From NCBI GenBank assembly GCA_036496285.1, contig DASXLI010000024.1, positions 37,125 to 101,124 on the forward strand: 64,000 nt of DNA, written 5' to 3'. The stretch's first letter is position 1. Each line of letters starts with the position of its first letter. The stretch comes from Candidatus Binatia bacterium. GTDB taxonomy: Bacteria > Desulfobacterota > Binatia > UTPRO1. Under the pieces are notes generated by a model. It did not search any database. It was not told the DNA's origin and saw nothing but the letters and a program-made list of their open reading frames with translations. Shown here in pieces: positions 2,753 to 24,800 of the stretch. Both the position numbers and the translations under genes were made by a program.

Positions 2753-5155
2753 TCAGGCCGACAGCGCCGTCGGGAGGGGGAGCGGCAGCGGCGCTCGCCG
2801 CACCGCATCGGAAACGGGGAAACGCAGGACGAACGACGACCCCCTGCCGGGCTCGCTCTCGACCGCAATCGTTCCGCCGAGCGTCAGGGTCAGCCGACGC
2901 ACGATGTAGAGGCCGAGGCCGACGCCGTCGTGGCGGCGGCGGTCGCTGCCGTCGACCTGGCGGAACATGTCGAAGATGATCGCCTGGTTCTCGGCCGTGA
3001 TGCCGATGCCGGTGTCCGTGACCGTGATCTGCAGGACACCGCCGTCGTCGGTCAGGCCGGCCGCGACCGATACCGAACCCGATTCGGTGAACTTGAGCGC
3101 GTTGTGGACCAGGTTGCGGACGATCATCTTCAGCTTGTTGTGATCGCTTTGCAGGGTCGGCAGGTCCGGCTCGGCCGCCATGACGAGACGCACGCCCGGC
3201 TTCACCCACGAGCTCGGGACCTGGCCGGCGAGCTCATCGAGCAATTTCGCAACATCGACCGGTCCAAGGTTGACCGGCAGGGCGCCCGACTCCATCCGGC
3301 TGACGTCGAGCGTCGCCTGGATAAGCTCCAGCAGTTGACGCGAGTAGTCGAGCACCTTGAGGCAGATCTCGCGCTGGTTCTCGCTGATCGGCCCGAAGTC
3401 GCCGTCGCGGAGCAGCTCGCTGTAGCCGATGATCGCGTTGAGCGGCGTTCGAAGCTCGTGGGACATGGTGCCGATGAACTCCGACTTGAGGCTGTTCGCG
3501 GCACGCAGGTTGCGGAGCAGCCGTCCGTTCTCGATCGCGGCCACGGTCTGGTAAGCGATGCCGGTCAGGAGCCGCCGGGTCTTTGAGCTGCACGCGGTCG
3601 CGCGCTCGTGCGAGCCGGCCGTGAGCGCGCCGATGGCCTCGCCGCGCAAGGTGAGCGGCACGACGACGAGCGACTTCAGCATCCAGCGCCGCCACCATTC
3701 GCCCGGCACCGGGATCTCGCCGTCGGCCTCGCGGCACTCGGCGAAGCCCTGGCGGGCCGCCTGCTCGAGGATGGGGAAGTCGCGCATCTCGAGGTCGAGG
3801 TGGCGTGCCTCCTCGAGGATGTGGGCGCGACTCGCGTCGCTGCCCGCGGCGATGTGACAGGTGCCGCGCTCGTGGTCGTAGAGGACGATGTTGACGAAAT
3901 CGTCGTCGACGAGGGTCCGGGTCAACGCGCAGAGCCGGTCGAGGCGGTCCTCGGCGTCGAAGGTCGCGTCGAGGAGCGCAGCGACTTGCAGGAGCGCCCC
4001 GGAGATCTCCGCCTCCTCGCGTTGCGCCGCGTGCAGGCTCGCGTTCTCGATCGCCACCGCGGCGTGCGTCGCGATGCCGCCCGCGAGCTTCCGCTGGAAG
4101 GGCGCGAACGGGCCTTTGGTGGCGCGGTAGCCGGTCGCGAAGAGCCCGAGCGTCCGGTTGCCGCACCGCATGGCCGCGAACATCGCCGAGCCGATGCGCC
4201 AGTCGTGCAACGCGCGCGCACCGGCGCCGCTGGTCGCGTCGGTGAGCTCGACCAGGCCTTCAGCGGCGACCAGCGCGCCGAAGTCCCAGAAGCCCTCGCC
4301 GATCGGCGTCTCCGACGGCGCGCCGAGACCGCGACTCGCCATGAGGCGATAGCCCGACGGCGCCGCGGCGTCGACCAGGATGGTCGCGCACCAGTCGGTC
4401 CGCAGGCGCTCGATCGCCACCGTCTGCAGGCGATCCATGACGACCCGGAGATCGAGCGAGGTGCCAAGCGCGCGGCTCACCTCGAGAAGGCCGAGGGCGC
4501 TCTCGGCCGTGACGCTGAGCTCGGCGTTCGCCTCCGCGAGGCGCTCGCCCGTGGACGCGAGGTTGCGGTTCTTGTCGCGCAGATGCTGCTTGTAGAAGAA
4601 GCTCTGGTTTCCGACCAGGCAGAACACGAAGATCGACGCCGCGAACATCACCCACGGGTTCGCGTGGGCGAGCACGGCCATGTCGCTCAGGTGGAAGAGG
4701 CACGCCGAGCACGCCGCGGCGAACGCGGTGATGACGATACCGCAGACGCCCGACACCATCGTCGCGGGCACGATCGTCATCAGGAAGAAGTTCGAGAAGA
4801 GGAGGCGGTTGGGGCCGAGCACCGCCAGTCCGGCCGCGATCGACGTCGTATCGACGATGAGCTGCAGGTAGACGAGCGCGTGGGCGTGCCCGCGCGTCGC
4901 CATCACGCGGTAGAGCGGATTGAGCGCGGCGGTCGCGCCGCAGATGGCGACGATCGAGAGCCACGGCAATCCGAGGTGGCCGACGCTGCTGATGATCGGC
5001 ACCCAGACGGTCACGGCCGCGACCGTCCAGAGACGCGTCAGCATCAGCCAGTCGTTGATCGCGGCGACGTCCGACTGCTCGAGCTGCGCGACGGACGCGA
5101 GGTCGCGCGGCTTGGCACCGATGGGTGCGGGCGAGGGCGGACGGCGGACTGCCAC
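2753..5155 (-). CDS. Membrane sensor histidine kinase with tandem GAF domains, HisKA and HATPase_c
   Basis: An N-terminal multi-TM region is followed by two GAF-like segments and an H-box (SHELRTPLNAIIGYSELL). The N, G1 and G2 boxes are present (HNALKFT...DTGIGI...GVGLGLYIV). Confidence 0.8.
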   Translation of the reverse strand: MAVRRPPSPAPIGAKPRDLASVAQLEQSDVAAINDWLMLTRLWTVAAVTVWVPIISSVGHLGLPWLSIVAICGATAALNPLYRVMATRGHAHALVYLQLIVDTTSIAAGLAVLGPNRLLFSNFFLMTIVPATMVSGVCGIVITAFAAACSACLFHLSDMAVLAHANPWVMFAASIFVFCLVGNQSFFYKQHLRDKNRNLASTGERLAEANAELSVTAESALGLLEVSRALGTSLDLRVVMDRLQTVAIERLRTDWCATILVDAAAPSGYRLMASRGLGAPSETPIGEGFWDFGALVAAEGLVELTDATSGAGARALHDWRIGSAMFAAMRCGNRTLGLFATGYRATKGPFAPFQRKLAGGIATHAAVAIENASLHAAQREEAEISGALLQVAALLDATFDAEDRLDRLCALTRTLVDDDFVNIVLYDHERGTCHIAAGSDASRAHILEEARHLDLEMRDFPILEQAARQGFAECREADGEIPVPGEWWRRWMLKSLVVVPLTLRGEAIGALTAGSHERATACSSKTRRLLTGIAYQTVAAIENGRLLRNLRAANSLKSEFIGTMSHELRTPLNAIIGYSELLRDGDFGPISENQREICLKVLDYSRQLLELIQATLDVSRMESGALPVNLGPVDVAKLLDELAGQVPSSWVKPGVRLVMAAEPDLPTLQSDHNKLKMIVRNLVHNALKFTESGSVSVAAGLTDDGGVLQITVTDTGIGITAENQAIIFDMFRQVDGSDRRRHDGVGLGLYIVRRLTLTLGGTIAVESEPGRGSSFVLRFPVSDAVRRAPLPLPLPTALSA

Positions 5156-5283
5156 GCTCCGGAGCGGAGCAAAGCCTATGCCACGGTATCTGGCACCCCG
5201 CCCGGAAAACGGGCCCGAAACGGCCCGCCGCGCGACCGCTCAGGCGCCGCGCGCGCTAGCAGCAACGCCCGCGTGCCACTCCG

Positions 5284-5459
5284 TCATTCCCGTGACGCCG
5301 CGCCCCGGGATGCGCCGCTCGCGAGCCTCGCGCGCAGCTCCTCGAGCTCGCGGGTGGTGGCGCGGTGCTTGCGCCCAAGGCGGATCAGGAAGAGCGCGAG
5401 CAGCGTCCAGATCGCCGCGTAGGCGCTGAATAGGAACCAGAAGCGATCGGGGTTGCTCA
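5284..5459 (-). CDS. ccmD: Heme exporter protein CcmD
   Basis: A 58-aa single-TM protein (MSNPDRFWFLFSAYAAIWTLLALFLIRLGRKHR...). Its ATG overlaps the ccmC stop, and it is the last gene of the ccm operon. Confidence 0.6.
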
Positions 5460-6194
5460 TCGTGCGGCCCGAGCCGCGGATGCGTCGAGCGCCCCGATCT
5501 CGTCCTCCAGCGCGTGCAGCTCGTCGCGCAGCCGCAGGTCCTCGTAGCGCCGCCAGAGGAGCCACAGGAAGAGCAGCAGGAAGGCGACGAAGGCGACGAT
5601 CAACGTCGCGATCATGCGGCTGTCCTGGATGCCGGCGCCCGTCCCCGACGGCGCCGTGATGACCGACGGGTGCATGCCGCGCCACAAGCGCACCGACACC
5701 ATGATCAGCGGCACGTCCAGCACGCCGACGATCGCGAGCACCGCCGCGTAGCGCGCGATCTGCGGATCGTCCTGCGCCATCGCCCGCAGCACGAGGTACA
5801 CGGCGTAGATCGTCCAGAGGATCAGGGTCATCGTGAGCCGCGGGTCCCAGGTCCACCACGTGCCCCAGATGGGACGTGCCCAGATCGGGCCGCTCACCAG
5901 CACCATGGTGCAGAAGAGCATGCCCACCTCGACGGCGGCGTGCGCCAAGCGGTCGAACTCGGCACGGCCACGCCAGAGGAAGAGGCAGCTCGCCGCGGCG
6001 GCGACGCCGAAGCCCGCGAACGCCTCCCAGGCGGCGTTCACGTGAAAGTAGAAGATGCGCTGCACCGGCCCCTGCATGCGCTCGTTCGGCACCCAGAGGA
6101 AGACGCACGCGAGCGCAATGAACATCGCGACCGTCGCGGCGACGGGCAGGACGCCGTCGGCGAGCGGGGCGAGACGTCGGCGGATCATCATGAG
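5457..6194 (-). CDS. ccmC: Heme exporter protein CcmC (WWD domain)
   Basis: It has the WGTWWTWDPRLT tryptophan-rich WWD motif, conserved His residues and six TM helices. The start is MMIRRR at 6194. Confidence 0.85.
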   Translation of the reverse strand, partial: LMMIRRRLAPLADGVLPVAATVAMFIALACVFLWVPNERMQGPVQRIFYFHVNAAWEAFAGFGVAAAASCLFLWRGRAEFDRLAHAAVEVGMLFCTMVLVSGPIWARPIWGTWWTWDPRLTMTLILWTIYAVYLVLRAMAQDDPQIARYAAVLAIVGVLDVPLIMVSVRLWRGMHPSVITAPSGTGAGIQDSRMIATLIVAFVAFLLLFLWLLWRRYEDLRLRDELHALEDEIGALDASAARAAR

Positions 6195-6201
6195 TCGCTC
6201 C

Positions 6202-6864
6202 TCACTCGAGCACGAGCTGCTCGAACAGCATCCAGCCGGCCACGGTGACAATCACGTCGAACGTCGCCAGCACGCGGAGCCACACCCCCGCGCTCGCCGC
6301 CGGGCCGCCGGACAGGACGATGCGGCTTGCCTCGACGGCGCAGATGACGACCGGCACGAGGAGCGGCAACACGAGAAGCGGCAGCAGCAGCTCGCGCGCG
6401 CGCAAGCGCACTGAGATCGCGGCGAACAGCGTCGCGAGCGCCGAGAAGCCGATCAGCCCGAGCCCGTTCACGAGCAGGAGCTCGACCGGCGACGCGGCCA
6501 CCGGCACGCCGAGCACGAGCCCGAGCAGCAGGATAAGCACGACGTCGGCGATGGCGAGGACCACCAGGTTCGCGACGAGCTTGGCCGCGAAGATCGCGCC
6601 GCGGTCGACGGGCGCGAGCAGGAGCCCGTACCACGCGCCGCTCTCGCGCTCCACGAGGAACGTGCGCTGCACGCCGAGCAGGCCGGCGAAGATCAGCGTG
6701 ACCCACAGGACCGCGGGCGCGGCGCCGCGTGCGCCGTCGGGATCGAGCGCGAAGGTGAAGGTCAGCAGGATCAGGACGACCAGCATGACGAGGCTCGCGA
6801 GCGCCTCCCGCGTGCGCATCTCGAGCAGCAAGTCCTTGCGCAGGATGGGCCAGAGGGAGCGCAT
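6202..6864 (-). CDS. ccmB: Heme exporter permease CcmB
   Basis: A 220-aa polytopic membrane protein (MRSLWPILRKDLLLEMRTREALASL...) typical of CcmB. Its start lies 3 nt after the ccmA stop. Confidence 0.8.
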   Translation of the reverse strand: MRSLWPILRKDLLLEMRTREALASLVMLVVLILLTFTFALDPDGARGAAPAVLWVTLIFAGLLGVQRTFLVERESGAWYGLLLAPVDRGAIFAAKLVANLVVLAIADVVLILLLGLVLGVPVAASPVELLLVNGLGLIGFSALATLFAAISVRLRARELLLPLLVLPLLVPVVICAVEASRIVLSGGPAASAGVWLRVLATFDVIVTVAGWMLFEQLVLE

Positions 6865-6866
6865 GC

Positions 6867-7574
6867 CTAGGCCGCCACCGCGCCGGTGATGCGGCGGTAC
6901 GCCTCGTGGAACGCGCCGAGCTCGCCCGCCGTGCGAGTCGCCTGCCAGGCCACACGACCATCGTGCAGGATCATGGCCCGGTCGGCAATCGCGAGGCCGC
7001 GCTCGAAATCGTGGGTCGCGACGATCACCGTGCGGCCGTCCGCATGCGACGTGACGAGGAGGTCCGAAAGCAGATCGGCCGCCGCGGCGTCGAGCGCGCT
7101 CCACGGCTCGTCGAGCAGGAGGAGGTCGGGTGCGTGCAACAGCGCACGGGCGAGCGCCAGGCGCTGTTCCATGCCGCGCGAGAAGGCGCGCACCGGCCGC
7201 GTGCCCGTGCCGGCGAGGCCCACACGCGTGAGCCATTCCGCCGCGATCCGCTCGGGCTCGGGCAACGCATACAGTCGGGCGTAGAACGCGAGATTCTCAC
7301 TCGCGCTGAGATCCGGGTAGAGGAAGCTCTGGTGCGATACGACGCCGATGCGGCGCCGCGTGCTCGCCTCGCGCTCGAGCGAGCCGAAGAGGCGGAGCGA
7401 GCCGGCCGTCGGCGCGTAGATGGTCGCGCAGAGGCGCAGCAAGGTGCTCTTCCCCGCCCCATTCGGGCCGAAGAGGACGAGCGTCTCCCCGGCGTCGACC
7501 CGCAGCGTGACGTCGCGCAGCACACGCGTGCGGCCGAACGCCTTGCCGAGCGACTCGGCCTCGACGACGCTCAT
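6867..7574 (-). CDS. ccmA: Cytochrome c biogenesis ABC ATPase CcmA
   Basis: It has Walker A (GPNGAGKST), the signature FSRGMEQR, Walker B (LLLLDEP) and an H-loop (ATHD). Confidence 0.8.
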   Translation of the reverse strand: MSVVEAESLGKAFGRTRVLRDVTLRVDAGETLVLFGPNGAGKSTLLRLCATIYAPTAGSLRLFGSLEREASTRRRIGVVSHQSFLYPDLSASENLAFYARLYALPEPERIAAEWLTRVGLAGTGTRPVRAFSRGMEQRLALARALLHAPDLLLLDEPWSALDAAAADLLSDLLVTSHADGRTVIVATHDFERGLAIADRAMILHDGRVAWQATRTAGELGAFHEAYRRITGAVAA

Positions 7575-7668
7575 GCGTCGGAAATACCGAACGCTGTTCG
7601 AGAAGGGAAGGCGCGATCCATCAGATCCATCGCGGCGCGAGGCGTGAGCCGCGGCCGTGAAGCGGCCG

Positions 7669-7947
7669 CTAGCGCCGGTCCAGCGCCGCGAGGGCGGCGA
7701 GCGCTCGATCCTCGTAGGTGCGGCGCAGGGTCGCATAGTCCTCGTCGGAGAGCTTGCCCATCTGCAGGTCGAACTCCGCCTCTTTGATCGCGGCGTAGGC
7801 GAGGTCGCGCTCCTTCTCGAGCCGGTAGCGCTCGGGGTCGCCGGACGGGGACGGCGGCACGATGGCGCCGCGCAGGAGCGGCGCGGCGACGGCCCACGCG
7901 ACCGAGGCGACGATCGCAAGCCCGGCGGCGTACCAGTACGACGTCAC
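7669..7947 (-). CDS. Small single-TM protein of unknown function inside the ccm operon, with a GTG start
   Basis: A GTG lies 1 nt after the ccmH stop. The product is VTSYWYAAGLAIVASVAWAVAAPLL (TM) followed by a charged helical tail (ERYRLEKERDLAYAAIKEAEFDLQMGKLSDEDYATLRRTYEDRA). It has no Cys and no TPR. The track ORF (7669..7989) starts at an ATG inside ccmH. Confidence 0.35.
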   Translation of the reverse strand: MTSYWYAAGLAIVASVAWAVAAPLLRGAIVPPSPSGDPERYRLEKERDLAYAAIKEAEFDLQMGKLSDEDYATLRRTYEDRALAALAALDRR

Positions 7948-7948
7948 G

Positions 7949-8347
7949 TCACGCGTCCCAGCGGTCGAGCTCGGCCTCGAGACGGGCACGGAGCTTCGGG
8001 TCGTCGGCGGCAGGCGCCGGGGGCTTGACCGTGTCCTGCTGCCGCCGCCAGCGCCGCGTCAGGATCACGATCAGCATCGTCGAGAGCAGGACCACGGCGA
8101 ACGGCGTCACCCAGGCGACGATGTTGAAGCCGCTCGTCGTCGGCGCCGAGAGGATCTTCTCGCCGTACTTGCCGGAGAAGTACGAGAGGACCTCCTCGCC
8201 CGTCTTCCCGAGCGCGAGCTGCGACGCGATCTCCTGCTTCAGTGGGATGCCGGAGGGGCACTGCAGATGGTTGCAGGCGTGCACCGTCAGGCCACAGCCG
8301 CACTGACACGTGAGCGCCTCCTCGAGATCGGTCTGCGACGCGTTCAC
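7949..8347 (-). CDS. ccmH: Cytochrome c-type biogenesis protein CcmH/CycL
   Basis: It has an LTCQCGCGLTVHACNHLQCP (LRCxxC-type) motif followed by a TM segment. The GTG start overlaps the ccmF TGA stop (GTGA). Confidence 0.75.
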   Translation of the reverse strand: MNASQTDLEEALTCQCGCGLTVHACNHLQCPSGIPLKQEIASQLALGKTGEEVLSYFSGKYGEKILSAPTTSGFNIVAWVTPFAVVLLSTMLIVILTRRWRRQQDTVKPPAPAADDPKLRARLEAELDRWDA

Positions 8348-10332
8348 GCGAACGCGCGTCCCTCGACGGCGAGCGCCGCGGCGAGCGCGCGCTGCTCCGC
8401 GGCGGTCGGCATCATGACGATCATCGTGCCGAGCACCATCGTGATGCCGCCGAGCCACAGCCAGACGACCAGCGGGTTGATGAACACCTGCAGCGTCATG
8501 AGCCCGGACTGGTCGTCGTAGCTGCCGAGCACGAGATAGAGGTCCTCCCACAGCGTCGTGCGCAGCGCGATCTCCGTCGTCGGCTGCTGCTGGCGCTTGT
8601 AGAAGCGCTTCTCCGGATACATCGTCGTGAGGACCTTGCCGCCGCGCGCGACCGTGATCTCTGCCAGCATCGACGCCGTATGCGGCGTGTCCTCGTTGCG
8701 GATGCCCTGGTACGTGAGGGTGTAGCCGCCGACCTCGACGGAATCGCCGGGGTGCATCGAGTGCTGCTCCTCGATGCGGAACGCCGCCGACGCCGCGATG
8801 CCGACGAACGCCATCACCACCCCGATGTGGACAATGTAGCCGCCGTACCGCCTGCGGTTCTTGTTGACGAGGTGCGCGAGCGCGGTGACGGGCGGCTCGC
8901 CCATCAGCGCCTGGCGCGCCCGGGTGCCGCGGTAGAACTCGAGCACGATCGTCGTGAGCACGAAGCCGGCGAGCGAGAAGCAGACGAGCGCGTAGTAGTG
9001 GCGCACGCCGGCGGCGAAGAGGCCGAGGCCTGCAGCGAAGCCGATCGCGAGCGGCATGATGAACGCGCGGCGCAGGTTGCGGGCGCTGGCGCGCCGCCAG
9101 GCGATCACCGGCCCGACCCCGGTCATGAAGAGCAGCGCAAGGCCGAGCGGGGCGTTCACCTTGTTGAAGAACGGCGGCCCGACCGTGATCTTGATGCCAC
9201 GCACCGCCTCCGAGATGACCGGGAAGATGGTGCCCCAGAAGGTGGCGAACGCGATGCCCACCAGCAGCAGGTTGTTGAAGAGGAACGCCGCCTCGCGCGA
9301 CAGGAACGAGTCGATCTCGTTGGCGCTGCGCAGGAGCGGCCGGCGGATGACCACGAGGGTGAGCGAGACTGCGATCACCGTGGTGAGGAAGCCGATGAAG
9401 TACGGCCCGAGCCCGGACTGCGTGAACGAGTGCACCGAGGAGACGACGCCGCTCCGGGTGAGGAAGGTGCCGAAGATGGTCAAGGTGAAGGTGAGCAGCA
9501 CCAGCACCATGTTCCACATCTTCAGCATGTTGCGTTTCTCCTGGATCATCACCGAGTGGAGGAACGCGGTGCACGCGAGCCACGGCATGAACGCAGCGTT
9601 CTCGACCGGATCCCACGCCCAGTAGCCGCCCCAGCCCAGCACCTCGTAGGCCCAGCGGCCGCCGAGCATGTTGCCGACGGAGAGGAAGAACCAGGCGAAG
9701 AGCGTCCAGCGCCGGGTCGTCCGGATCCACACGTCGCCGAGGCGGCCACTCGCGAGCGCGGCGATCGCGAACGCGAACGGCACCGAGCAGCCGACGTACC
9801 CGAGGTAGAGCGACGGCGGGTGGATCATCATCCAGTAGTTCTGCAGGAGCGGGTTGAGATCGGCCCCTTCGCGCGCCGGCACCGGCAGCCGCTGGAACGG
9901 GTCGGTGATGAAGACGAGGAGCCCGAGGAAGAACACCGCCGTCGTCATCATCGTGGCGGTGACGTACGGCATGAGCGCCTCGTTGCGGTCGCGGTTCTGC
10001 AGGTGCACCAGCGACGACATGCTGGTGAGGATCAGCGTCCAGAACAGCAGTGAGCCCTGCTGTCCGCCCCAGAGCGCCGCGACGGTGTAGTAGGTCGGCA
10101 GCGTCGACGACGAGTACGCGGCGACGTACTCGAGCGAGAAATCGTGCTGCAGGAGCGCGCGCAGCAGCACCGCGGCGGCGAGCACGACGAGGCCGTGCAC
10201 GATGTACGCCGCGGCACGCCCCGAGGCGACCAGGTCGGCACGCCGGCGGCGCGCGCCGAACACGGAGACCACCGTCGCATACACCGCAGCGAAGAGGGCC
10301 AGCCGCAGCCCGAGAACGCCGAGCTCGATCAT
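8344..10332 (-). CDS. ccmF: Cytochrome c-type biogenesis heme lyase CcmF
   Basis: A 662-aa polytopic protein with the WWD motif (WGGYWAWDPVEN) and the conserved His residues of the CcmF/NrfE family. Confidence 0.9.
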   Translation of the reverse strand: MIELGVLGLRLALFAAVYATVVSVFGARRRRADLVASGRAAAYIVHGLVVLAAAVLLRALLQHDFSLEYVAAYSSSTLPTYYTVAALWGGQQGSLLFWTLILTSMSSLVHLQNRDRNEALMPYVTATMMTTAVFFLGLLVFITDPFQRLPVPAREGADLNPLLQNYWMMIHPPSLYLGYVGCSVPFAFAIAALASGRLGDVWIRTTRRWTLFAWFFLSVGNMLGGRWAYEVLGWGGYWAWDPVENAAFMPWLACTAFLHSVMIQEKRNMLKMWNMVLVLLTFTLTIFGTFLTRSGVVSSVHSFTQSGLGPYFIGFLTTVIAVSLTLVVIRRPLLRSANEIDSFLSREAAFLFNNLLLVGIAFATFWGTIFPVISEAVRGIKITVGPPFFNKVNAPLGLALLFMTGVGPVIAWRRASARNLRRAFIMPLAIGFAAGLGLFAAGVRHYYALVCFSLAGFVLTTIVLEFYRGTRARQALMGEPPVTALAHLVNKNRRRYGGYIVHIGVVMAFVGIAASAAFRIEEQHSMHPGDSVEVGGYTLTYQGIRNEDTPHTASMLAEITVARGGKVLTTMYPEKRFYKRQQQPTTEIALRTTLWEDLYLVLGSYDDQSGLMTLQVFINPLVVWLWLGGITMVLGTMIVMMPTAAEQRALAAALAVEGRAFA

Positions 10333-10360
10333 CCGCGTGCGCCCGCGGTGCGGAGCGCCG

Positions 10361-10801
10361 TCACGACTTCGGTGCCTCGGCTGGACGCGGGGCCTCCGCC
10401 TCGTGCGGCACCTCGGCCTCGTACTTCGACGGGCAGCTGGTCATGAGGGTCTTCGCGTGGAACACGCCCTCGCGGGCGTATGTGCCCTCGACGATGACGT
10501 CGCGGCCCTCGGCGAACATGTCGGGCAGGACGCCGTTGTACTGCACGTCGACACCGTCGGTGTTGTCGAAGTTGGCGAGACGAAAGCCGAGATCGAGCGT
10601 GCCGGCATTCCACCGCATGCTGTCGGCGGCGACGCGTCCCGCGACCCGCACGCCCTCGCCGGCGACGGCCGAGCGCTTCGACAGGAACTCGTCGATCGTG
10701 AGGTAGTAGACCGACGTCTCGCGGATGCCGGTGTAGACGAGGTAGGAGACGGCCGCCACGATGATGGCGGCGCCAATGATGAAGCGGCGGTTCTTGCGCA
10801 T
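10361..10801 (-). CDS. ccmE: Heme chaperone CcmE, variant with a CxxxY heme-binding motif
   Basis: It has an N-terminal TM anchor and an OB-fold body. Its C-terminal ...FHAKTLMTSCPSKYEAEV aligns with E. coli ...LAKHDENYTPPEV, with Cys replacing the heme-binding His. Confidence 0.85.
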   Translation of the reverse strand: MRKNRRFIIGAAIIVAAVSYLVYTGIRETSVYYLTIDEFLSKRSAVAGEGVRVAGRVAADSMRWNAGTLDLGFRLANFDNTDGVDVQYNGVLPDMFAEGRDVIVEGTYAREGVFHAKTLMTSCPSKYEAEVPHEAEAPRPAEAPKS

Positions 10802-10821
10802 AGGGGGCTCGGGGCCGGGCT

Positions 10822-11652
10822 TCAGGACTCGTCCGGGGACCCGTCCCCACTAGTACTCGCGCCCGGACGGCCTTTCAACTCGCCGCGCGGCGCGACGCAC
10901 ACTCCGCGGGTGGAGGCGCGGACGAACGCCACGAGATGACGCACATCGTCGGTCAGGGGCGCGCTCTCGAGCTGGTCGAGCGCCCGACCGAGATGCACCG
11001 GGCGGCCGAAGAGGGCCGCCACGGCCCGGCGGACATGGGTGATGCGCTCGGAGCTGAATCCGGCGCGCCGCAGCCCGACGACGTTCACCCCGCGCACCGT
11101 ATGCGTCCCGTCGATCACGCAGAACGGCGGGATGTCGCGGCTCGTGCGCGAAAGCCCACGCATGAGCGCAAGCGTGCCGATGCGCACATGCTGATGCACG
11201 ACGCAGTTGCCCGAGACGAACGCACGGTCGGCGAGCTCCACGTGCCCCGCGAGGAGCGCCCCGCCTGCGACGATGGCCTGATTGCCGATGTGGCAGTTGT
11301 GGGCGACGTGCGCGTTCTGCATGAAATAGTTGCCGTTCCCGATGATCGTGGTGCTGCCGGGCAGCGTGCCGCGATGCACCTGCGCGTGCTCGCGGAAGAC
11401 GTTGTCGTCGCCGATCGTGAGGAACGTCTCGCCGCCGCGGAACGCGAGGTCCTGCGGCTCGCCGCCGAGCACGACGCCGGGATGGACGACGTTGCCCGCA
11501 CCCAGGACGGTCGCGCCGCGGATCACGGCGTGCGTCATGAGTCGGGTGCCCGGGCCGATCCGCGCCGGCCCCTCGATCACGACGTAGGGGCCGATCTCCG
11601 CGGTCGGATCGACGACCGCGTCGGGGGCGACGATCGCGGTCGGATGGATCAT
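10822..11652 (-). CDS. lpxA: UDP-N-acetylglucosamine O-acyltransferase LpxA (left-handed beta-helix)
   Basis: It begins [38 protein letters not shown] and carries hexapeptide repeats. It is about 276 aa. The upstream part of the track ORF is junk. Confidence 0.85.
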
Positions 11653-11855
11653 TTCTCGCCGCTCTCGTCCGGGCCCGACTCGTCGTCGCTGTCGCCGAGC
11701 TCGTCCCCCGCGACCCGGTAGCGCTCGGTGGCCCAGGCGCCCAGGTCGATCAGCCGGCAGCGCTCGCCGCAGAAGGGCCGGGAGGGGTTGTCCGCCCAGG
11801 CGACGGGCTGGTGGCAGGTCGGACAGCGCGGCGCGAACGTCACTACGCCGAGCAT
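11649..11855 (-). CDS. yacG: DNA gyrase inhibitor YacG (zinc ribbon)
   Basis: It reads [44 protein letters not shown] with an acidic tail. Its stop overlaps the lpxA start (ATGA). Confidence 0.75.
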
Positions 11856-11940
11856 AGGACAGGCCCGTCCGGGGTCGCAACGGCCGGCGCGCCGCACGCC
11901 GCGATCACGCGAGCGCGTCGGCCTGGCCGGCAGCCGTGGC

Positions 11941-12378
11941 TCAGTAGCCGAGGCTGCGCTTGCGGGCGCGCAGGTTGCGGCGGCTGCCTTTGTTGCGCGC
12001 CGGACGTGCGCTGGCGCCGAACGAGTCACCCCCGAACGGGTCGCCGGCACCGAACATGTCGCGCGGCGCGGAGAAGATCTGCGGCCCGGGCGCGGGACGG
12101 GGAGCGCCTCCCCCTCCGCTGCGCGCGGGGGGGCGATCGTCGGCGTCGTTCACACGCAGGCGGCGGCCACCGAGATCGTAGCCGTCGTAGCGGCGGATCG
12201 CGTCGGCGGCTTCCGCGTCGGTGCCGTACTCGACGAAGGCGAAGCCGCGTGACCGACCTGTCTCACGGTCGGTGCCGATGTGGACGCGAACGACGCGTCC
12301 TGCTTCCGAGAGAACCTGCGAGAGCTCCTGTTCAGTGGTGGTGAAGCTCAGATTGCCGACGAAAATCTTGTTCGAAAT
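11941..12378 (-). CDS. RRM-domain RNA-binding protein with a Gly/Arg-rich tail; the start codon is non-canonical or uncertain
   Basis: It has RNP-2 (IFVGNL) and RNP-1 (RGFAFVEY). The reading frame opens ...AAGGAG CGCGTC ATT TCG AAC AAG ATT TTC GTC GGC AAT CTG, giving [12 protein letters not shown]..., with no ATG, GTG or TTG upstream. The track shows only the C-terminal 70 aa. Confidence 0.6.
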
Positions 12379-12518
12379 GACGCGCTCCTTTGTGTGATGG
12401 GTTTGTGAATCCCGGGGCTACTCTGCCTCTGCAGCGTGCCCCGTATACCGGATGGCCGTTTCGTATGCCAATACGCGTTCGGCGGAGGGAAAACCGCGGG
12501 CGGCGTCCGGAAGGGCCC

Positions 12519-14873
12519 TCAGCGGTCGGTCGGGGGATCAACCGGTGCGCCGCTCGGGGCCTCCGAGGAGTGCTCGGACCCTGCCGGGGCCTCGGCGGCG
12601 TCGAGCCGGGTCTCGCTGCGGCCATAGTCGGCCCCAGGGGGCCCGGCCTCGCCGGTGGCGTGGCCGTTGTCTCCGGCCGCGGCTTCCGCCCGACGACCAC
12701 CGCGACGGCCGCGACCGCCGCGCTTCCCGCCACGACGGCGGCGCCGGCGTGCCGGCACGGCTGCCTCGCCGAGCGGGCTCTCAGCGGGGGTGCCCTCGGA
12801 ATCCTCTTCCTGCGACTCGGCCTCGAGGGTCTCGGCGTGGCCTGCCTCGTCCTCGTAGGGCACGCCATTCCCCGGGGACACCACCGCGGTCTCCGCCCGG
12901 GGAACCGGTGCGGGGAGCGCCGCCGACCAGGGATCGTCGTCGACGACAGCGGCAGCGGCCGGCTGCCAGGGTGACGGCGCCTCGGTGGCGATCTCGTGGG
13001 CTGCCTCGGGCGGCTCGGCGACAGGCTCGGACAGCCGGTCCGGCCGGCCCAGCTCGTCGGTCACGTCCACCGGCGGGCCGCCTTCGGCCATCATGTCGGC
13101 CGCGGCCGACTGCTCCTGCACCGCTTGCTCCTCGCCGGCGCGACGGCCGCGCCCGCCCCTGCGGCGGCGGCGACGCCCGCGCTCGCCCTCGGCGCGCTCC
13201 TCACCCGCCGCGCGTGTCGACGGCGAGCGGCGTGACGGCGCCTCCGCGACCGGCGCCGCTGCCGCGGCGCGCATGGCGGCCGAGCGCGCGGCGCCGGCGG
13301 CGCTCCGCGACGTGCCGTTGGCCGGCAGGCCTTCCTCGGATGCCGCCACCTCGCCCGGACGGACGACCGGCGTGGGCCGCTCGCTCGCGTCGCGCGTGCG
13401 GGTCTCGATCTCGGACTGGTGCGACATCAGCTTGTCGCTCAGCACGATCGTGATCGTGGCGGCGTAGCGGCGCTCGAGCAGCGCCAGATCCTCGCGCTTC
13501 TGGTTGAGGAGATAGATCGCGACCTCGCGCGGCAGGCTGACGCGCATCTGCGCGACGTCGCCCTCGGCGATGCGGTTGTGAATCTTGCGCAACGCGACCA
13601 GCGCCGCCGACTCCGGCGTTCGGATCGCGCCGTGGCCTTCGCACATCGGGCACGCGGTGTACGAGCTCGCCGTCGCCGCCGGCCGCAGGCGCTGGCGCGA
13701 CACCTCGAGCAATCCGAGCCGTGAGATGCGGCCGATGTCGTGGCGCGCCTTGTCGGGCTTCATCGCCTCGCGCAGCGCGCGCTCGACGTCGTTGATGTGG
13801 CTCTGCTGGCGCATGTCGATGAAGTCGATGACGACGATGCCGCCGAGGTCGCGCAGGCGCAGCTGGCGGCCGATCTCCGCCGCCGCCTCGAGATTCGTCT
13901 TGTGTGCCGTATCCTCCTGGTTGCCGCCGCGCATGGAGCCGCCCGAGTTGACGTCGATCGCGGTGAGCGCCTCGGTGCCGTCGATCACGATCGAGCCGCC
14001 CGAGCGGAGCTGGACGCGCCGCTTGTAGATCGACTCGATCTGGGCCTCGAGCCCGAAGCGCGAGAAGATCGGCTGATCGCCCTGATAGAGGTGGAGGAGC
14101 CGCTCCTTCCCCGGCATGACGTTCAGCAGGAAGTCCTTGGCGCGCTCGTAGACCTCCTCGTTGTCGATGAAGATCTCGCTGATGTCGGGCGTGAAGTAGT
14201 CGCGGATGTTGCGCAGCACGAGGTCGTGCTCGCGATAGATCAGTGCAGGGGCGCGCTTGGTCTCGGCGTGCTTGCGGATGTTCTCCCAGAGACGCTGCAG
14301 GTAGTGCAGGTCGCGCTCGAGCTCGCCGGACTCCTCGTCGAATCCGGCCGCGGTGCGCACGATGATGCCGCAGCCCGCCGGCGGCTGGAGACGCTCGATC
14401 ATCTCGCGGACGCGCGCACGCTCCTCGCCTTCGATCTTGCGCGAGATACCCGCGTCCTCGGAGCCCGGCAGCAGCACGAGGTAGCGGCCGGGCAGCGAGT
14501 AGAACGTCGAGAGCGTCGGCGGCTTGTTGGTGAACTGCTCCTTGATGATCTGGACCAGGACCTCGTCGCCGGACTTCAGGACCTCCTTGATGCGCCGGCG
14601 ACCCTTCTCGGCGGACGCGCCGTTGCGGCCCGACGGCAGGTTGCGGAAGCAAATCTCGTCCAGGGGCAGGAATGCGTCGCGCTCGGCGCCGATATCCACG
14701 AACGCGGCCTCGATGGCCGGGTGGATGCGCCGAACTGTACCCTTGTAGATGTTGCCCTTCAGGTGTTCGCGGCTGAAGGACTCGATCTCGAACGACTCGA
14801 GCTGGCCGTTCTCAACGATCCCGACGCGGCTTTCCTCCGCGTGGGTGACGTTGATCAGCATTACCTTCGACAT
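12519..14873 (-). CDS. rne: Ribonuclease E (S1 and catalytic domain plus an Arg-rich scaffold C-terminus)
   Basis: It starts MSKVMLINVTHAEESRVGIVENG with an S1 domain. It has a DNase I-like region and a Zn-link (CPMCEGHG). The C-terminal half is low-complexity and Arg/Glu-rich. Confidence 0.9.
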   Translation of the reverse strand: MSKVMLINVTHAEESRVGIVENGQLESFEIESFSREHLKGNIYKGTVRRIHPAIEAAFVDIGAERDAFLPLDEICFRNLPSGRNGASAEKGRRRIKEVLKSGDEVLVQIIKEQFTNKPPTLSTFYSLPGRYLVLLPGSEDAGISRKIEGEERARVREMIERLQPPAGCGIIVRTAAGFDEESGELERDLHYLQRLWENIRKHAETKRAPALIYREHDLVLRNIRDYFTPDISEIFIDNEEVYERAKDFLLNVMPGKERLLHLYQGDQPIFSRFGLEAQIESIYKRRVQLRSGGSIVIDGTEALTAIDVNSGGSMRGGNQEDTAHKTNLEAAAEIGRQLRLRDLGGIVVIDFIDMRQQSHINDVERALREAMKPDKARHDIGRISRLGLLEVSRQRLRPAATASSYTACPMCEGHGAIRTPESAALVALRKIHNRIAEGDVAQMRVSLPREVAIYLLNQKREDLALLERRYAATITIVLSDKLMSHQSEIETRTRDASERPTPVVRPGEVAASEEGLPANGTSRSAAGAARSAAMRAAAAAPVAEAPSRRSPSTRAAGEERAEGERGRRRRRRGGRGRRAGEEQAVQEQSAAADMMAEGGPPVDVTDELGRPDRLSEPVAEPPEAAHEIATEAPSPWQPAAAAVVDDDPWSAALPAPVPRAETAVVSPGNGVPYEDEAGHAETLEAESQEEDSEGTPAESPLGEAAVPARRRRRRGGKRGGRGRRGGRRAEAAAGDNGHATGEAGPPGADYGRSETRLDAAEAPAGSEHSSEAPSGAPVDPPTDR

Positions 14874-21867: not shown

Positions 21868-24800
21868 GGCATCCAGCTCGAAGCGCGCCGTCGTCGGCGC
21901 CGCCGCGCTCACCGCATTTCTGACGTTCGCAACGATCGCGCTCGCCGCAGCGCCCAACAGGTGCCTGAGCGGCCAGACACGCTGCGCGAGCCAGAAGGCG
22001 CAGGGTCTGCTGCAGTGCCACATCACGGCGGAGAGGGACGGCACTGCCGTCGATCCCGCGTGCACCGGGCGCGTGATGACGCGCTTCAGCGGCACTGCCG
22101 ACCAGCCGAGCTGCTTCGAGATGATCGGGGCGGGAGAAGATCGCAATTCCCAGGCGATCTGCGCCACGCACGACGACACGAACGCGATCGAGCAGAAGGT
22201 CGACGCGTTCGTGGAGGACGTCGTGTCGGGTATCGATCCCGACTTCCAACATGCTTCCCCGCCGAACTCGTGCACCTCGGGCAAGAAGAAGTGCGTCGCG
22301 GACAAGCTGAAGGACATCCTGCGATGCCACGAGCAGGCGATCCGAAGCGGCCACCACGTCGATCGTGACTGCGTCGCGAGGGCCCGCGCGAAGTTCGACG
22401 GCAACCGAGGCTGCTTCGCCAGGCTCGAGGCGAGGGAGAACCCGAGTAGCCCCTCGACCATCTGCAAGAGTCACGGTGACACCGCGGCCGTCGAGCAGAA
22501 GGTCGATGCCTTCATCACCGACCTGCTCTGCGAGCTCGGGTCGCCGACGGTGACGTGCGGAACGCCGACGCCGCCGCCCGTCCCGACGCGAACCAAGACA
22601 CCGACGCCGACCCGCACGCCGACGCCGACACGGACCGCGACGCCGGCAGCCACCGCGACCCCCACGCGAACCGCCACCGCCGCGCTGACCGCCACCAGGA
22701 CCGCAACTCCCGCGCCGACCGCGACGCCGACGAGGACCGCGACACCCGCGGCCACCGCGACGCCGACCAGGACAGCGACGCCGGTGAGCACCGCCACCTC
22801 GACGGCAACGACGGTGCCCACGACGACGGCGACGAGAACCGCCACGCCGCTACCGACCGCCACGCCGACGGTCACTTCCACGCCCGCGCAGACGGCAACC
22901 AGGACGGCGACGCCGGCGAGTACCGCGACCTCCACCGCGACCGCGACCGCGGTGCCCACGACGACCGCCACCGCGACGGCGACGGCGACCGCAACCACGG
23001 CCGCCACGGCAACCGCGACCAGAACCGCCACCCCGCTGCCGACCGCGACGCCGACGGTCACCTCGACACCCGCGCAAACAGCGACGAGAACGGCGACGCC
23101 GGCGACCACCGCCACGTCCACAGCGACGGCGACAGCAGCCGCAACGGCAACCGCAACGAGAACCGCCACCCCGCTGCCGACCGCGACACCGACCGTCACC
23201 GCGACGCCCGCGCTGACGGCGACTGCGACGAGAACCGCGACACCGACCGTCACCGCGACACCCGCACTGACGGCGACTGCGACGCGGACCGCCACGCCGA
23301 CCGTCACCTCGACACCGACTGTCACGGCCACCGCCGTGTTGACGGCGACCGCCACCCGGACCGCCACGCCGACCGTCACCGCAACGCCAGTGCTGACGGC
23401 GACGGCCACGAGAACGGCGACTCCGACGGTCACTGCAACGCCCGTCCTGACCGCGACGGCGACGGTGACCGCGTCGCCGACCCGCACCGCCACGCCCACG
23501 GTCACCGCGACGCCGGTGCTCACGGCCACCGCAACACGCACCGCGACGCCGACCGCCACCCTCACGCGCACCGCGACTCCGACGCCGACCGCCACCTCGA
23601 CGCCGGTCTCGCTCTGCGGCAATGGCGTCCTCGATGCGGGCGAGGACTGCGATGCCAGCGCCGGCGCCAGCGGCACGTGCGCTGCGCACTCGAACACGGA
23701 CCCCGCGTTCACCTGCACCGCTACGTGTCAGTGCGCCTGCCCGACGTTCGTCGAGTTCACTGGCATCCCGCGCTCCGCATGCGATGTCGGCACCAACGAA
23801 GGCCGCCTGTGCACCACGAACGCCGATTGCCCCGGCGGTAGCTGCGTGCCGCATCTCGAGGGCGCGCTCGATACCGGCTGGACCGGCAACGGCCACGACT
23901 CGACGATCGTGAGCGACGGCAAGATCACGGTCGGCGTATCGGGTTGCGCCGGCTCGAGCCGTCCGTGCGGAACTTGCTCGCTGGTCGGTCCGGTCGACAA
24001 CCTGAACGCGGCGACGTACCCGAGCGCGGTAGGCCCGAGCAAGGACCTGAACGATCACCGCTGCAGCAACAACACGTCGGTCCCGTGCAGCAACAACACG
24101 CCGTGCTTCCAGCAGTGCCTCGGTGGTACCAACGACGGCAATGCCTGCACGGCCGCATCGGCCTGCCCCGGTGGTGTCTGCCCCGCGGCGGGCACGTGCG
24201 AATACGCGTTCGGCACCTACCTGCCGCTCGCGGCCGGCGGCGTGTCGACCTGCGTCGGCAACCAGATCAACGGCAACATCACCGGCACGGCCAACATCGA
24301 GAGCGGCGCGTCGGCGACCACTGCCAAGCTGACGTCGCGCGTGTACAACGGCATCACGCTTTCGAACCCGTGTCCGCAGTGCAACGGCGACACCAATACC
24401 AACGACGGCGCCCGCGGCGGCACCTGCTCGGGCGGCCAGCGCGCAGGCAAGGCCTGCGACGTCAATGGCTCATCGCCGAACGCCTCCTTCGGGAAGACGA
24501 GCCTCGATTGCCCGCCGCTCACCGGCGCGCTCATCGCGACGCTCGGGATCGACCTGAGTAACACGACGGGCTCCAAGGTGCGGACGCTCTCCACGGCCAA
24601 CCCGCTCTGCCGCGCCCCAGGGTGGACCACGCAGCGCTGCCAGTGCGATACGTGCGCTGACCTCGCCGCCGAGGCCTGTTCGACGAATGCCGATTGCCCC
24701 GCAGGCCACCCCTGCGGCGTCAAGCGCTGCACCGGCGGTACCAACGGCGGCGCGCCGTGCACCTTGGCGAGCGAGTGCCCGGGCAGTGCATGCAGCACGC

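Follow-up and report, generated by a model that had tools for sequence, protein, structure and literature searches.

Positions 5284–11855 of the 64-kb stretch of DNA analysed here (hereafter the window), which comes from Candidatus Binatia bacterium, hold an intact cytochrome c maturation (Ccm) locus that we assign, with a probability of roughly 0.85, to the published variant named System I*. System I* is a form of the Ccm system found in Desulfovibrio as well as in other bacteria and in archaea (described by Allen et al. 2006 and Goddard et al. 2010; for summaries see PMC3601427 and PMC9084895), and it is defined by a heme-binding cysteine residue, within a CXXXY motif, in place of the histidine residue of CcmE (PMC3601427, PMC9084895). 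The window CcmE has the C-terminal motif LMTSC123PSKY127 and ends ...LMTSCPSKYEAE. Cys123 aligns with His130 of E. coli CcmE and Tyr127 with Tyr134, and the closest solved relative of the protein is Desulfovibrio vulgaris CcmE (PDB 2KCT). CPSKY is the majority motif among variant CcmEs (PMC3601427) and was present in all 54 readable CcmE sequences of the related loci; experimentally, the cysteine residue of CXXXY is needed in an archaeon (PMC9084895). System I* has already been described, and the present cluster adds to it a member from the phylum Binatota, a host phylum (Binatia) that goes unnamed in the accessible System I* literature.

Compared with the canonical System I of E. coli (ccmABCDEFGH; NC_000913 2291358–2297644), the window locus encodes homologous CcmA, CcmB, CcmC, CcmD, CcmE and CcmF as well as the helical and membrane part of CcmH, and the histidine residues and WWD motifs of CcmC and CcmF are shared. 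It differs in the replacement of CcmE His130 by cysteine, in the absence of CcmG, in a CcmH with an altered motif and no fused TPR domain, and in a module order of E-F-H-x followed by A-B-C-D, where x is a small open reading frame (ORF). The first-pass annotation of this DNA had called the region a System I (Ccm) cluster with anomalous features; the gene identities stand, but the features taken as anomalous are the expected signature of System I*, as marked by CcmE Cys123. Since the cluster is on our reading a System I* variant, neither the odd gene order nor the missing ccmG is out of the ordinary for its lineage.

The absence of ccmG from the cluster, which the first-pass annotation had also reported, was borne out. 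Using tblastn with E. coli CcmG and DsbD as queries, we detected no CcmG-like or DsbD/CcdA-like sequence in the cluster or anywhere else in the 64-kb window (CcmG at E≤0.01). A ccmG homologue inside the operon, a finding that would have spoken against the earlier description, was sought by the same search and not found, and no thioredoxin-like ORF is hidden within the cluster. A thioredoxin-like match within 10 kb occurred in only two of 82 related loci. CcmG is absent or not detected in System I*, and holocytochrome c is made by a Desulfovibrio operon without CcmH and CcmG (PMC3601427); the lack of a dedicated CcmG in the cluster is thus usual for the system. The window cluster also has the ccmABCD, ccmE and ccmF genes of System I*, and it retains a CcmH, as do approximately one-third of System I* bacteria (PMC3601427). 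It departs from the published system in two proteins, a CcmH with a five-cysteine cluster (C-x-C-G-C-x6-C-x4-C) rather than CXXC, and a mini-protein resembling the N-terminus of CcmI in place of full-length CcmI, a component that is helpful yet not required in System I* (PMC3601427).

Ten co-directional genes fill 5284–11855 exactly, all on the minus strand, in the order yacG, lpxA, ccmE, ccmF, ccmH, small ORF, ccmA, ccmB, ccmC and ccmD. The features of the locus, in the direction of reading, are as follows.

11649–11855, minus strand: yacG, 68 amino acids, zinc-finger DNA gyrase inhibitor family (PF03884, 1.3e-22)
10822–11652, minus strand: lpxA, 276 amino acids, acyl-ACP--UDP-GlcNAc O-acyltransferase (NF003657, 282.7 bits, cut-off 226; TIGR01852, 271.2, cut-off 231)
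10361–10801, minus strand: ccmE, 146 amino acids, OB-fold heme chaperone of the System I* type (PF03100, 8.5e-26)
8344–10332, minus strand: ccmF, 662 amino acids, heme lyase (PF16327, CcmF_C, 1.8e-73; PF01578, 1.7e-40; PDB 6ZMQ, 7.8e-125)
7949–8347, minus strand: ccmH variant, 132 amino acids, GTG start (PF03918, 2.4e-16, 59.7 bits, cut-off 25)
7669–7947, minus strand: small ORF, 92 amino acids, GTG start, putative CcmI-N-terminal-like subunit
7575–7668, minus strand: spacer of 94 nucleotides between the E-F-H-x and A-B-C-D modules
6867–7574, minus strand: ccmA, 235 amino acids, ABC ATPase (TIGR01189, 131.8 bits, cut-off 131.6; PF00005, 1.6e-31)
6202–6864, minus strand: ccmB, 220 amino acids (PF03379, 5.1e-31)
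5457–6191, minus strand: ccmC, 244 amino acids (PF01578, 2.5e-32; TIGR01191, 7.6e-38)
5284–5460, minus strand: ccmD, 58 amino acids, the "alternative" CcmD family (TIGR04391, CcmD_alt_fam, 1.6e-9, 37.6 bits, cut-off 24)
2753–5155, minus strand: GAF/HisKA/HATPase_c sensor kinase (Pfam families as for the identical gene on the Joint Genome Institute (JGI) contig L001)

The coordinates, the co-directional order and all of the gene assignments made in the first pass agreed with the sequence and with the Pfam and NCBIfam family matches, the small ORF excepted; for LpxA the match reached 2.2e-84 and the equivalog cut-offs were exceeded. The junctions were described correctly in part. The GTGA overlap between the ccmF stop and the GTG start of ccmH, the overlap of the ccmC stop with the ATG of ccmD (ATGA), the 20-nucleotide gap between lpxA and ccmE, and the GAF histidine kinase downstream of ccmD (at 128 nucleotides) were all as stated, and a further ATGA overlap joins the yacG stop to the lpxA start. 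The statement that all eight genes are linked by start/stop overlaps does not hold, as within the ccm set only ccmF/ccmH and ccmC/ccmD overlap, the remaining genes being separated by 28 (ccmE–ccmF), 1 (ccmH–small ORF), 94 (small ORF–ccmA), 2 (ccmA–ccmB) and 10 (ccmB–ccmC) nucleotides. No sigma-70-like promoter or terminator was found in the 94-nucleotide spacer; in the scan of 5000–12600 that covered it, no sigma-70 promoter and only intragenic terminator-like matches were obtained, a result that is uninformative in DNA of 70% G+C. A structured element in this spacer was considered and dropped, its predicted fold being no more stable than that of shuffled sequences (z −0.91). In two relatives the modules are only 4–28 nucleotides apart.

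We then compared the locus with its relatives, taking one genome per species and using an alignment of 36 closer sequences as the query of the locus scan, which gave 80 loci, nearly all labelled Binatia or belonging to generic or mislabelled metagenome-assembled genomes (MAGs). The genes ccmE, ccmF, ccmH and the small ORF were contiguous in all 80. The genes ccmABC(D) followed directly in 50 of the 70 informative loci, stood elsewhere in the locus in seven (upstream or inverted), and were not found within 10 kb in 13. As E-F-H-x is always contiguous and the placement of ABC(D) varies, the locus consists of two mobile modules, each with canonical internal order, rather than of a local inversion, and E-F-H-x before A-B-C-D is the commonest permutation in the lineage. 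The gene order that had been described as inverted relative to the canonical one is therefore a swap of two modules. Seven additional loci, reached through more distant family members or CcmH homologues, all had ccmF and ccmH followed by the small gene, with ccmE first in the six that had upstream sequence; several of these loci are on contigs of 45–61% G+C, and one of the genomes is named Thermodesulfobacteriota by NCBI. The synteny comparison proposed in the first pass thus places the arrangement in approximately 80 Binatia species genomes. Two related genomes, on contigs of 7.0 and 1.8 Mb, share the whole neighbourhood of RNase E/G, RRM protein, yacG, lpxA, ccmE, ccmF, ccmH, x, ccmA, ccmB, ccmC, ccmD, GAF kinase and DUF1302 protein. 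On the 7.0-Mb contig of a related MAG (L002/L012, 7590–9595), ccmF is split into three ORFs of 261, 131 and 203 amino acids, likely through assembly frameshift errors or as a pseudogene.

The heme-loading complex CcmABCD is complete, with an ABC ATPase, CcmB, the WWD protein CcmC with its two flanking histidine residues, and CcmD. CcmC carries the sequence WGTWWTWDPR, and His50 and His174 align with His60 and His184 of the E. coli protein. In CcmF, the four residues His171, His259, His301 and His502 align with E. coli His173, His261, His303 and His491, and all four are kept together with the WWD motif. Judging by these retained histidine residues and WWD motifs, the remaining machinery looks functional.

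CcmH departs from the canonical protein in its redox motif. In place of LRCxxC, the window protein has the motif L-T-C14-Q-C16-G-C18-x6-C25-x4-C30, and no CXXC is present anywhere in its sequence. When aligned with E. coli CcmH by MAFFT, the protein retains the first cysteine residue of LRCxxC, and the second falls on Gly17, between Cys16 and Cys18; two further invariant cysteine residues follow. The form L-T-C-Q-C-[GS]-C-G-L-T...C-N-H-x-x-C was found in all 81 related loci, and the five-cysteine pattern C-x-C-G-C-x6-C-x3-5-C was invariant, distant low-G+C examples included, and present in all 101 new top matches of a profile search that found 1813 homologues. The two histidine residues of the window motif are not conserved in distant members, and for this reason are unlikely to be essential. 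It is possible that the cysteine cluster comprises a redox-active CXC pair with structural disulfides, or that it forms a metal site.

Outside the motif, the protein resembles the canonical CcmH periplasmic domain (2HL7; PF03918), with a Pfam match above threshold and, by hhalign, an alignment of residues 35–106 with E. coli CcmH 61–132 (probability 95.6%) that spans helices 2 and 3 and the membrane anchor. The canonical architecture is present, a helical domain being followed by one membrane helix and the sequence RRWRR. As the N-terminal tail is net acidic and RRWRR lies behind the membrane helix, the sequence predicts an N-out, C-in topology. Unlike the canonical domain, the window protein lacks a signal peptide; it starts 13 residues before the motif, and the upstream in-frame sequence is not hydrophobic. 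The whole clade of the window protein is leaderless, at 130–135 amino acids, whereas most homologues outside this clade have a leader of 30–60 residues (e.g. P0145, L085, L087, L088 and L089). The approximately 70-residue cysteine domain of the leaderless CcmH is one that has lost its signal peptide relative to most homologues, and its start codon overlaps the ccmF stop. A CcmF–CcmH translational fusion was considered as an explanation for the missing leader and rejected, as the GTG start and the length of approximately 132 amino acids are conserved across relatives.

The small ORF had been left in the first pass as an unknown ORF sitting where CcmG or CcmI would be expected. Our results indicate a probable relationship to the N-terminal membrane and cytoplasmic domain of CcmI, through matches of family members to TIGR03142, and not to CcmG. 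On sequence evidence it is a real gene. An identical 92-amino-acid gene call is found on an independent contig, the identical protein is listed by NCBI as a "hypothetical protein" of a Candidatus Binatia MAG, and approximately 250 close homologues of 90–100 amino acids share the invariant core E(K/R)E..LAYAAIKEA(E/D)FDxQMGKLSxEDYxxLR..YE.RAL. The gene stands directly after ccmH in 80 of 80 loci of the species collection and in all seven loci reached via distant homologues. A profile of the family finds 3084 representative clusters at E≤1e-3, the match always being N-terminal, and members outside the Binatia clade are mostly 120–240 amino acids long with a C-terminal zinc ribbon (FCxxCG...FCxxCG), an argument for a cytoplasmic location of the part behind the membrane helix. 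The AlphaFold2 (AF2) model of the window protein (pLDDT, predicted local distance difference test, 90.9) consists of a membrane helix (residues 2–25) and a hairpin of two helices (38–62 and 68–91). The chain stops behind this hairpin, at residue 92; a second membrane helix, a TPR domain (no TPR family match) and a zinc ribbon are all lacking.

CcmI is composed of two membrane helices with a cytoplasmic segment between them, followed by a periplasmic TPR domain (PMC3884852). The CcmI N-terminal model TIGR03142 (118 positions) matched five of 18 close relatives of the small protein weakly and 41 of 74 diverse family members at E≤0.01, the best at 4.1e-9, over model positions of approximately 2 to 86 or 106; P0248 was the sole member to exceed the curated cut-off (29.7 compared with 29.3). 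With CcmI/CycH of Rhodobacter and Pseudomonas (TIGR03142; PMC3884852), the family has in common a membrane helix at the N-terminus with a helical, cytoplasmic segment behind it, scores of its members against the CcmI N-terminal model, and a gene that adjoins ccmH. It differs in that the window protein, at 92 amino acids, lacks the second membrane helix and the periplasmic TPR domain that binds apocytochrome, and in that a cytoplasmic zinc ribbon, a feature not reported for CcmI, is found in most relatives outside the clade. From these comparisons, the small ORF product resembles the first helix and cytoplasmic segment of CcmI only. A profile search of the PDB with the family gave only generic zinc-ribbon matches (bL32 and eL37), and it appears that no structure of a CcmI N-terminus has been solved.

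These features suggest the following route for heme and apocytochrome. By homology, the loading module ccmABCD, an ABC-type release complex with the WWD protein CcmC and with CcmD, would load heme on to CcmE, which would hold it through Cys123 of CPSKY rather than through a histidine residue and deliver it to the WWD site of the heme lyase CcmF. CcmF may act together with the five-cysteine CcmH and the CcmI-N-like protein as a membrane complex. In such a complex, CcmH, membrane-anchored and with its cysteine domain in the periplasm, would handle the thiols of the apocytochrome CXXCH motif, and the small protein, through its membrane helix and cytoplasmic hairpin, could serve in docking or assembly by binding CcmF/CcmH within the membrane. 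In Rhodobacter, the N-terminal portion of CcmI reportedly docks to CcmF/CcmH in this way.

Several observations weigh against parts of this picture. Our ccmG searches covered the 64-kb window and 10 kb around related loci, and ccmG, ccdA or a TPR-type CcmI could lie elsewhere in the genome. CcmH is leaderless, and the periplasmic placement of its cysteine domain rests on the charge distribution and on the leader-bearing homologues; its AF2 model is of moderate confidence only (pLDDT 74.8), and the sole Foldseek match of that model in the PDB, Pseudomonas aeruginosa Pa-CcmH (2HL7), is weak (E 0.4). The window small protein gave no TIGR03142 match at E≤10, its link to CcmI being transitive through family members, and hhalign of its family to E. 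coli CcmH, whose C-terminal half is CcmI-like, gave no meaningful match. The CcmI N-terminal segment is probably missing from E. coli CcmH, which is hence a poor comparator, and the failed alignment is no refutation. These points bear on whether the small ORF is CcmI-like at all. It might instead encode an unrelated single-pass membrane protein whose gene simply accompanies ccmH, such as a regulator, or an anti-sigma-like zinc-ribbon protein now without its ribbon, and besides the failed alignment this would fit the lack of any direct Pfam or NCBIfam match for the window protein and the cytoplasmic zinc ribbon of most relatives, which canonical CcmI does not have. We consider it unlikely, however, as the 41 members that match the CcmI N-terminal model do so over approximately 85–100 of 118 positions with E as low as 4e-9, an extent of match that a single hydrophobic helix would not account for, and the small gene lies behind ccmH in every locus examined.

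Explanations of the locus as a whole other than System I* are much less probable. The reading implicit in the first-pass annotation, namely that a canonical System I operon has been reshuffled in this genome and its ccmG lost or mis-annotated, agrees with the presence of all canonical Ccm families except CcmG and with an order that differs from E. coli ccmABCDEFGH; it is nevertheless highly improbable given a cysteine residue at the heme-binding position of CcmE, conservation of arrangement and motifs in approximately 80 species genomes, and no thioredoxin-like ORF within the cluster. That the cluster is a heme lyase set of the NrfEFG type, dedicated to a special heme motif and not to general maturation, is only slightly easier to entertain. 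CcmF does score against NrfE models and CcmH weakly against NrfF, but all Nrf scores are far under the curated cut-offs (467.7 compared with 927.3, and 21.6 compared with 159.2), ccmE and ccmABCD are part of the cluster itself, and no multiheme gene resembling nrfA lies next to it, only two ORFs with CXXCH having turned up when the whole window was roughly scanned. An assembly artefact, with a chimeric junction at lpxA–ccmE or between the ccm modules, can be set aside almost entirely. The source is a metagenome-assembled contig, and the independent JGI contig (L001) differs from it by a 13-bp indel in lpxA; that contig is otherwise collinear over 11.6 kb that include both junctions, at 99.87% identity, and yacG-lpxA-ccmE recurs in 17 other species genomes, megabase-scale contigs included. 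Misassembly at lpxA–ccmE, raised in the first pass as a possible flaw, is thereby excluded, the more so because yacG(-lpxA) precedes ccmE in 23 of 66 informative loci.

The 13 bp in question (11005–11017, GGCCCTCTTCGGC on the minus strand) lie inside lpxA, where they are present in the window and absent from L001. This deletion is the only structural difference of the JGI contig and frameshifts its lpxA to 228 amino acids, the window copy being intact, and it represents either strain variation or an assembly error in the JGI contig. The linkage of lpxA and yacG to the ccm genes, which the first pass had singled out, does exist and is kept in some of the relatives, although we found nothing that ties the two genes functionally to cytochrome maturation. 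The 23 loci comprise 17 with yacG-lpxA-ccmE and six with yacG-ccmE and no lpxA; the relatives' lpxA encodes 273–275 amino acids and abuts or overlaps ccmE. The order ccmABCD-yacG-lpxA-ccmEFH-x occurs in L072, L073 and L092, and yacG–ccmE adjacency in L026, L060, L062, L063, L078, L079 and L083. Thus yacG, with or without lpxA, recurs beside ccmE in several Binatia permutations, sometimes between the two ccm modules, and has long been a neighbour of ccmE in part of the class, a case of conserved synteny with putative co-transcription.

The flanking genes are likewise shared with relatives. The GAF/HisKA kinase lies downstream of ccmD in 16 related loci and is a conserved neighbour; in the closest relatives the downstream order (window 2753–5155 and 820–2868) is this kinase, then a DUF1302 protein and a PEP-mutase/isocitrate-lyase-family gene. 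On the other side, a small RRM-domain gene is found in relatives between RNase E/G and yacG, and the window has a G+C peak of 78% at 12519–13500, over the Arg/Pro/Ala-rich C-terminal tail of the RNase E/G gene (14873..12519). Further away, at 22560–23605, approximately 1 kb of imperfect tandem repeats was observed with periods of 18, 36, 54 and 126 nucleotides (a unit being, e.g., ACCGCGACGCCGACCGTC, T-A-T-P-T-V on the plus strand). Long ORFs are open on both strands of this region, which probably encodes a Thr/Ala/Pro-rich repetitive protein.

Recognition of the System I* signature prevents the odd gene order and the missing ccmG from becoming a false lead, and the locus puts on record the system by which c-type cytochromes are matured in the uncultured phylum Binatota. 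According to a 2011 review, compensatory features in other System I* proteins were not found by bioinformatics, and in the searchable literature, which does not take in some key papers, we found no description of a CcmH rich in cysteine or of a Ccm protein with a zinc ribbon. Candidates for such features are the mini-CcmI and the CcmH with its five cysteine residues, a lead and not a claim of discovery. As a tentative and rather doubtful extension, ccmE(CPSKY)-ccmF-ccmH(C-x-C-G-C-x6-C-x3-5-C)-ccmI-N-like (with or without the zinc ribbon) might form a distinct and widespread subtype of System I*, in which these two proteins would be the compensatory features, taking over apocytochrome thiol handling and lyase assembly from CcmG and full-length CcmI. 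For the field of cytochrome c biogenesis, it may be of use that in System I* clusters keeping CcmH the CXXC is replaced by a five-cysteine cluster in all 101 top homologues and 81 loci examined, and the five-cysteine CcmH and the CcmI-N-like protein can be tested as candidates for the means by which System I* dispenses with CcmG and full-length CcmI.

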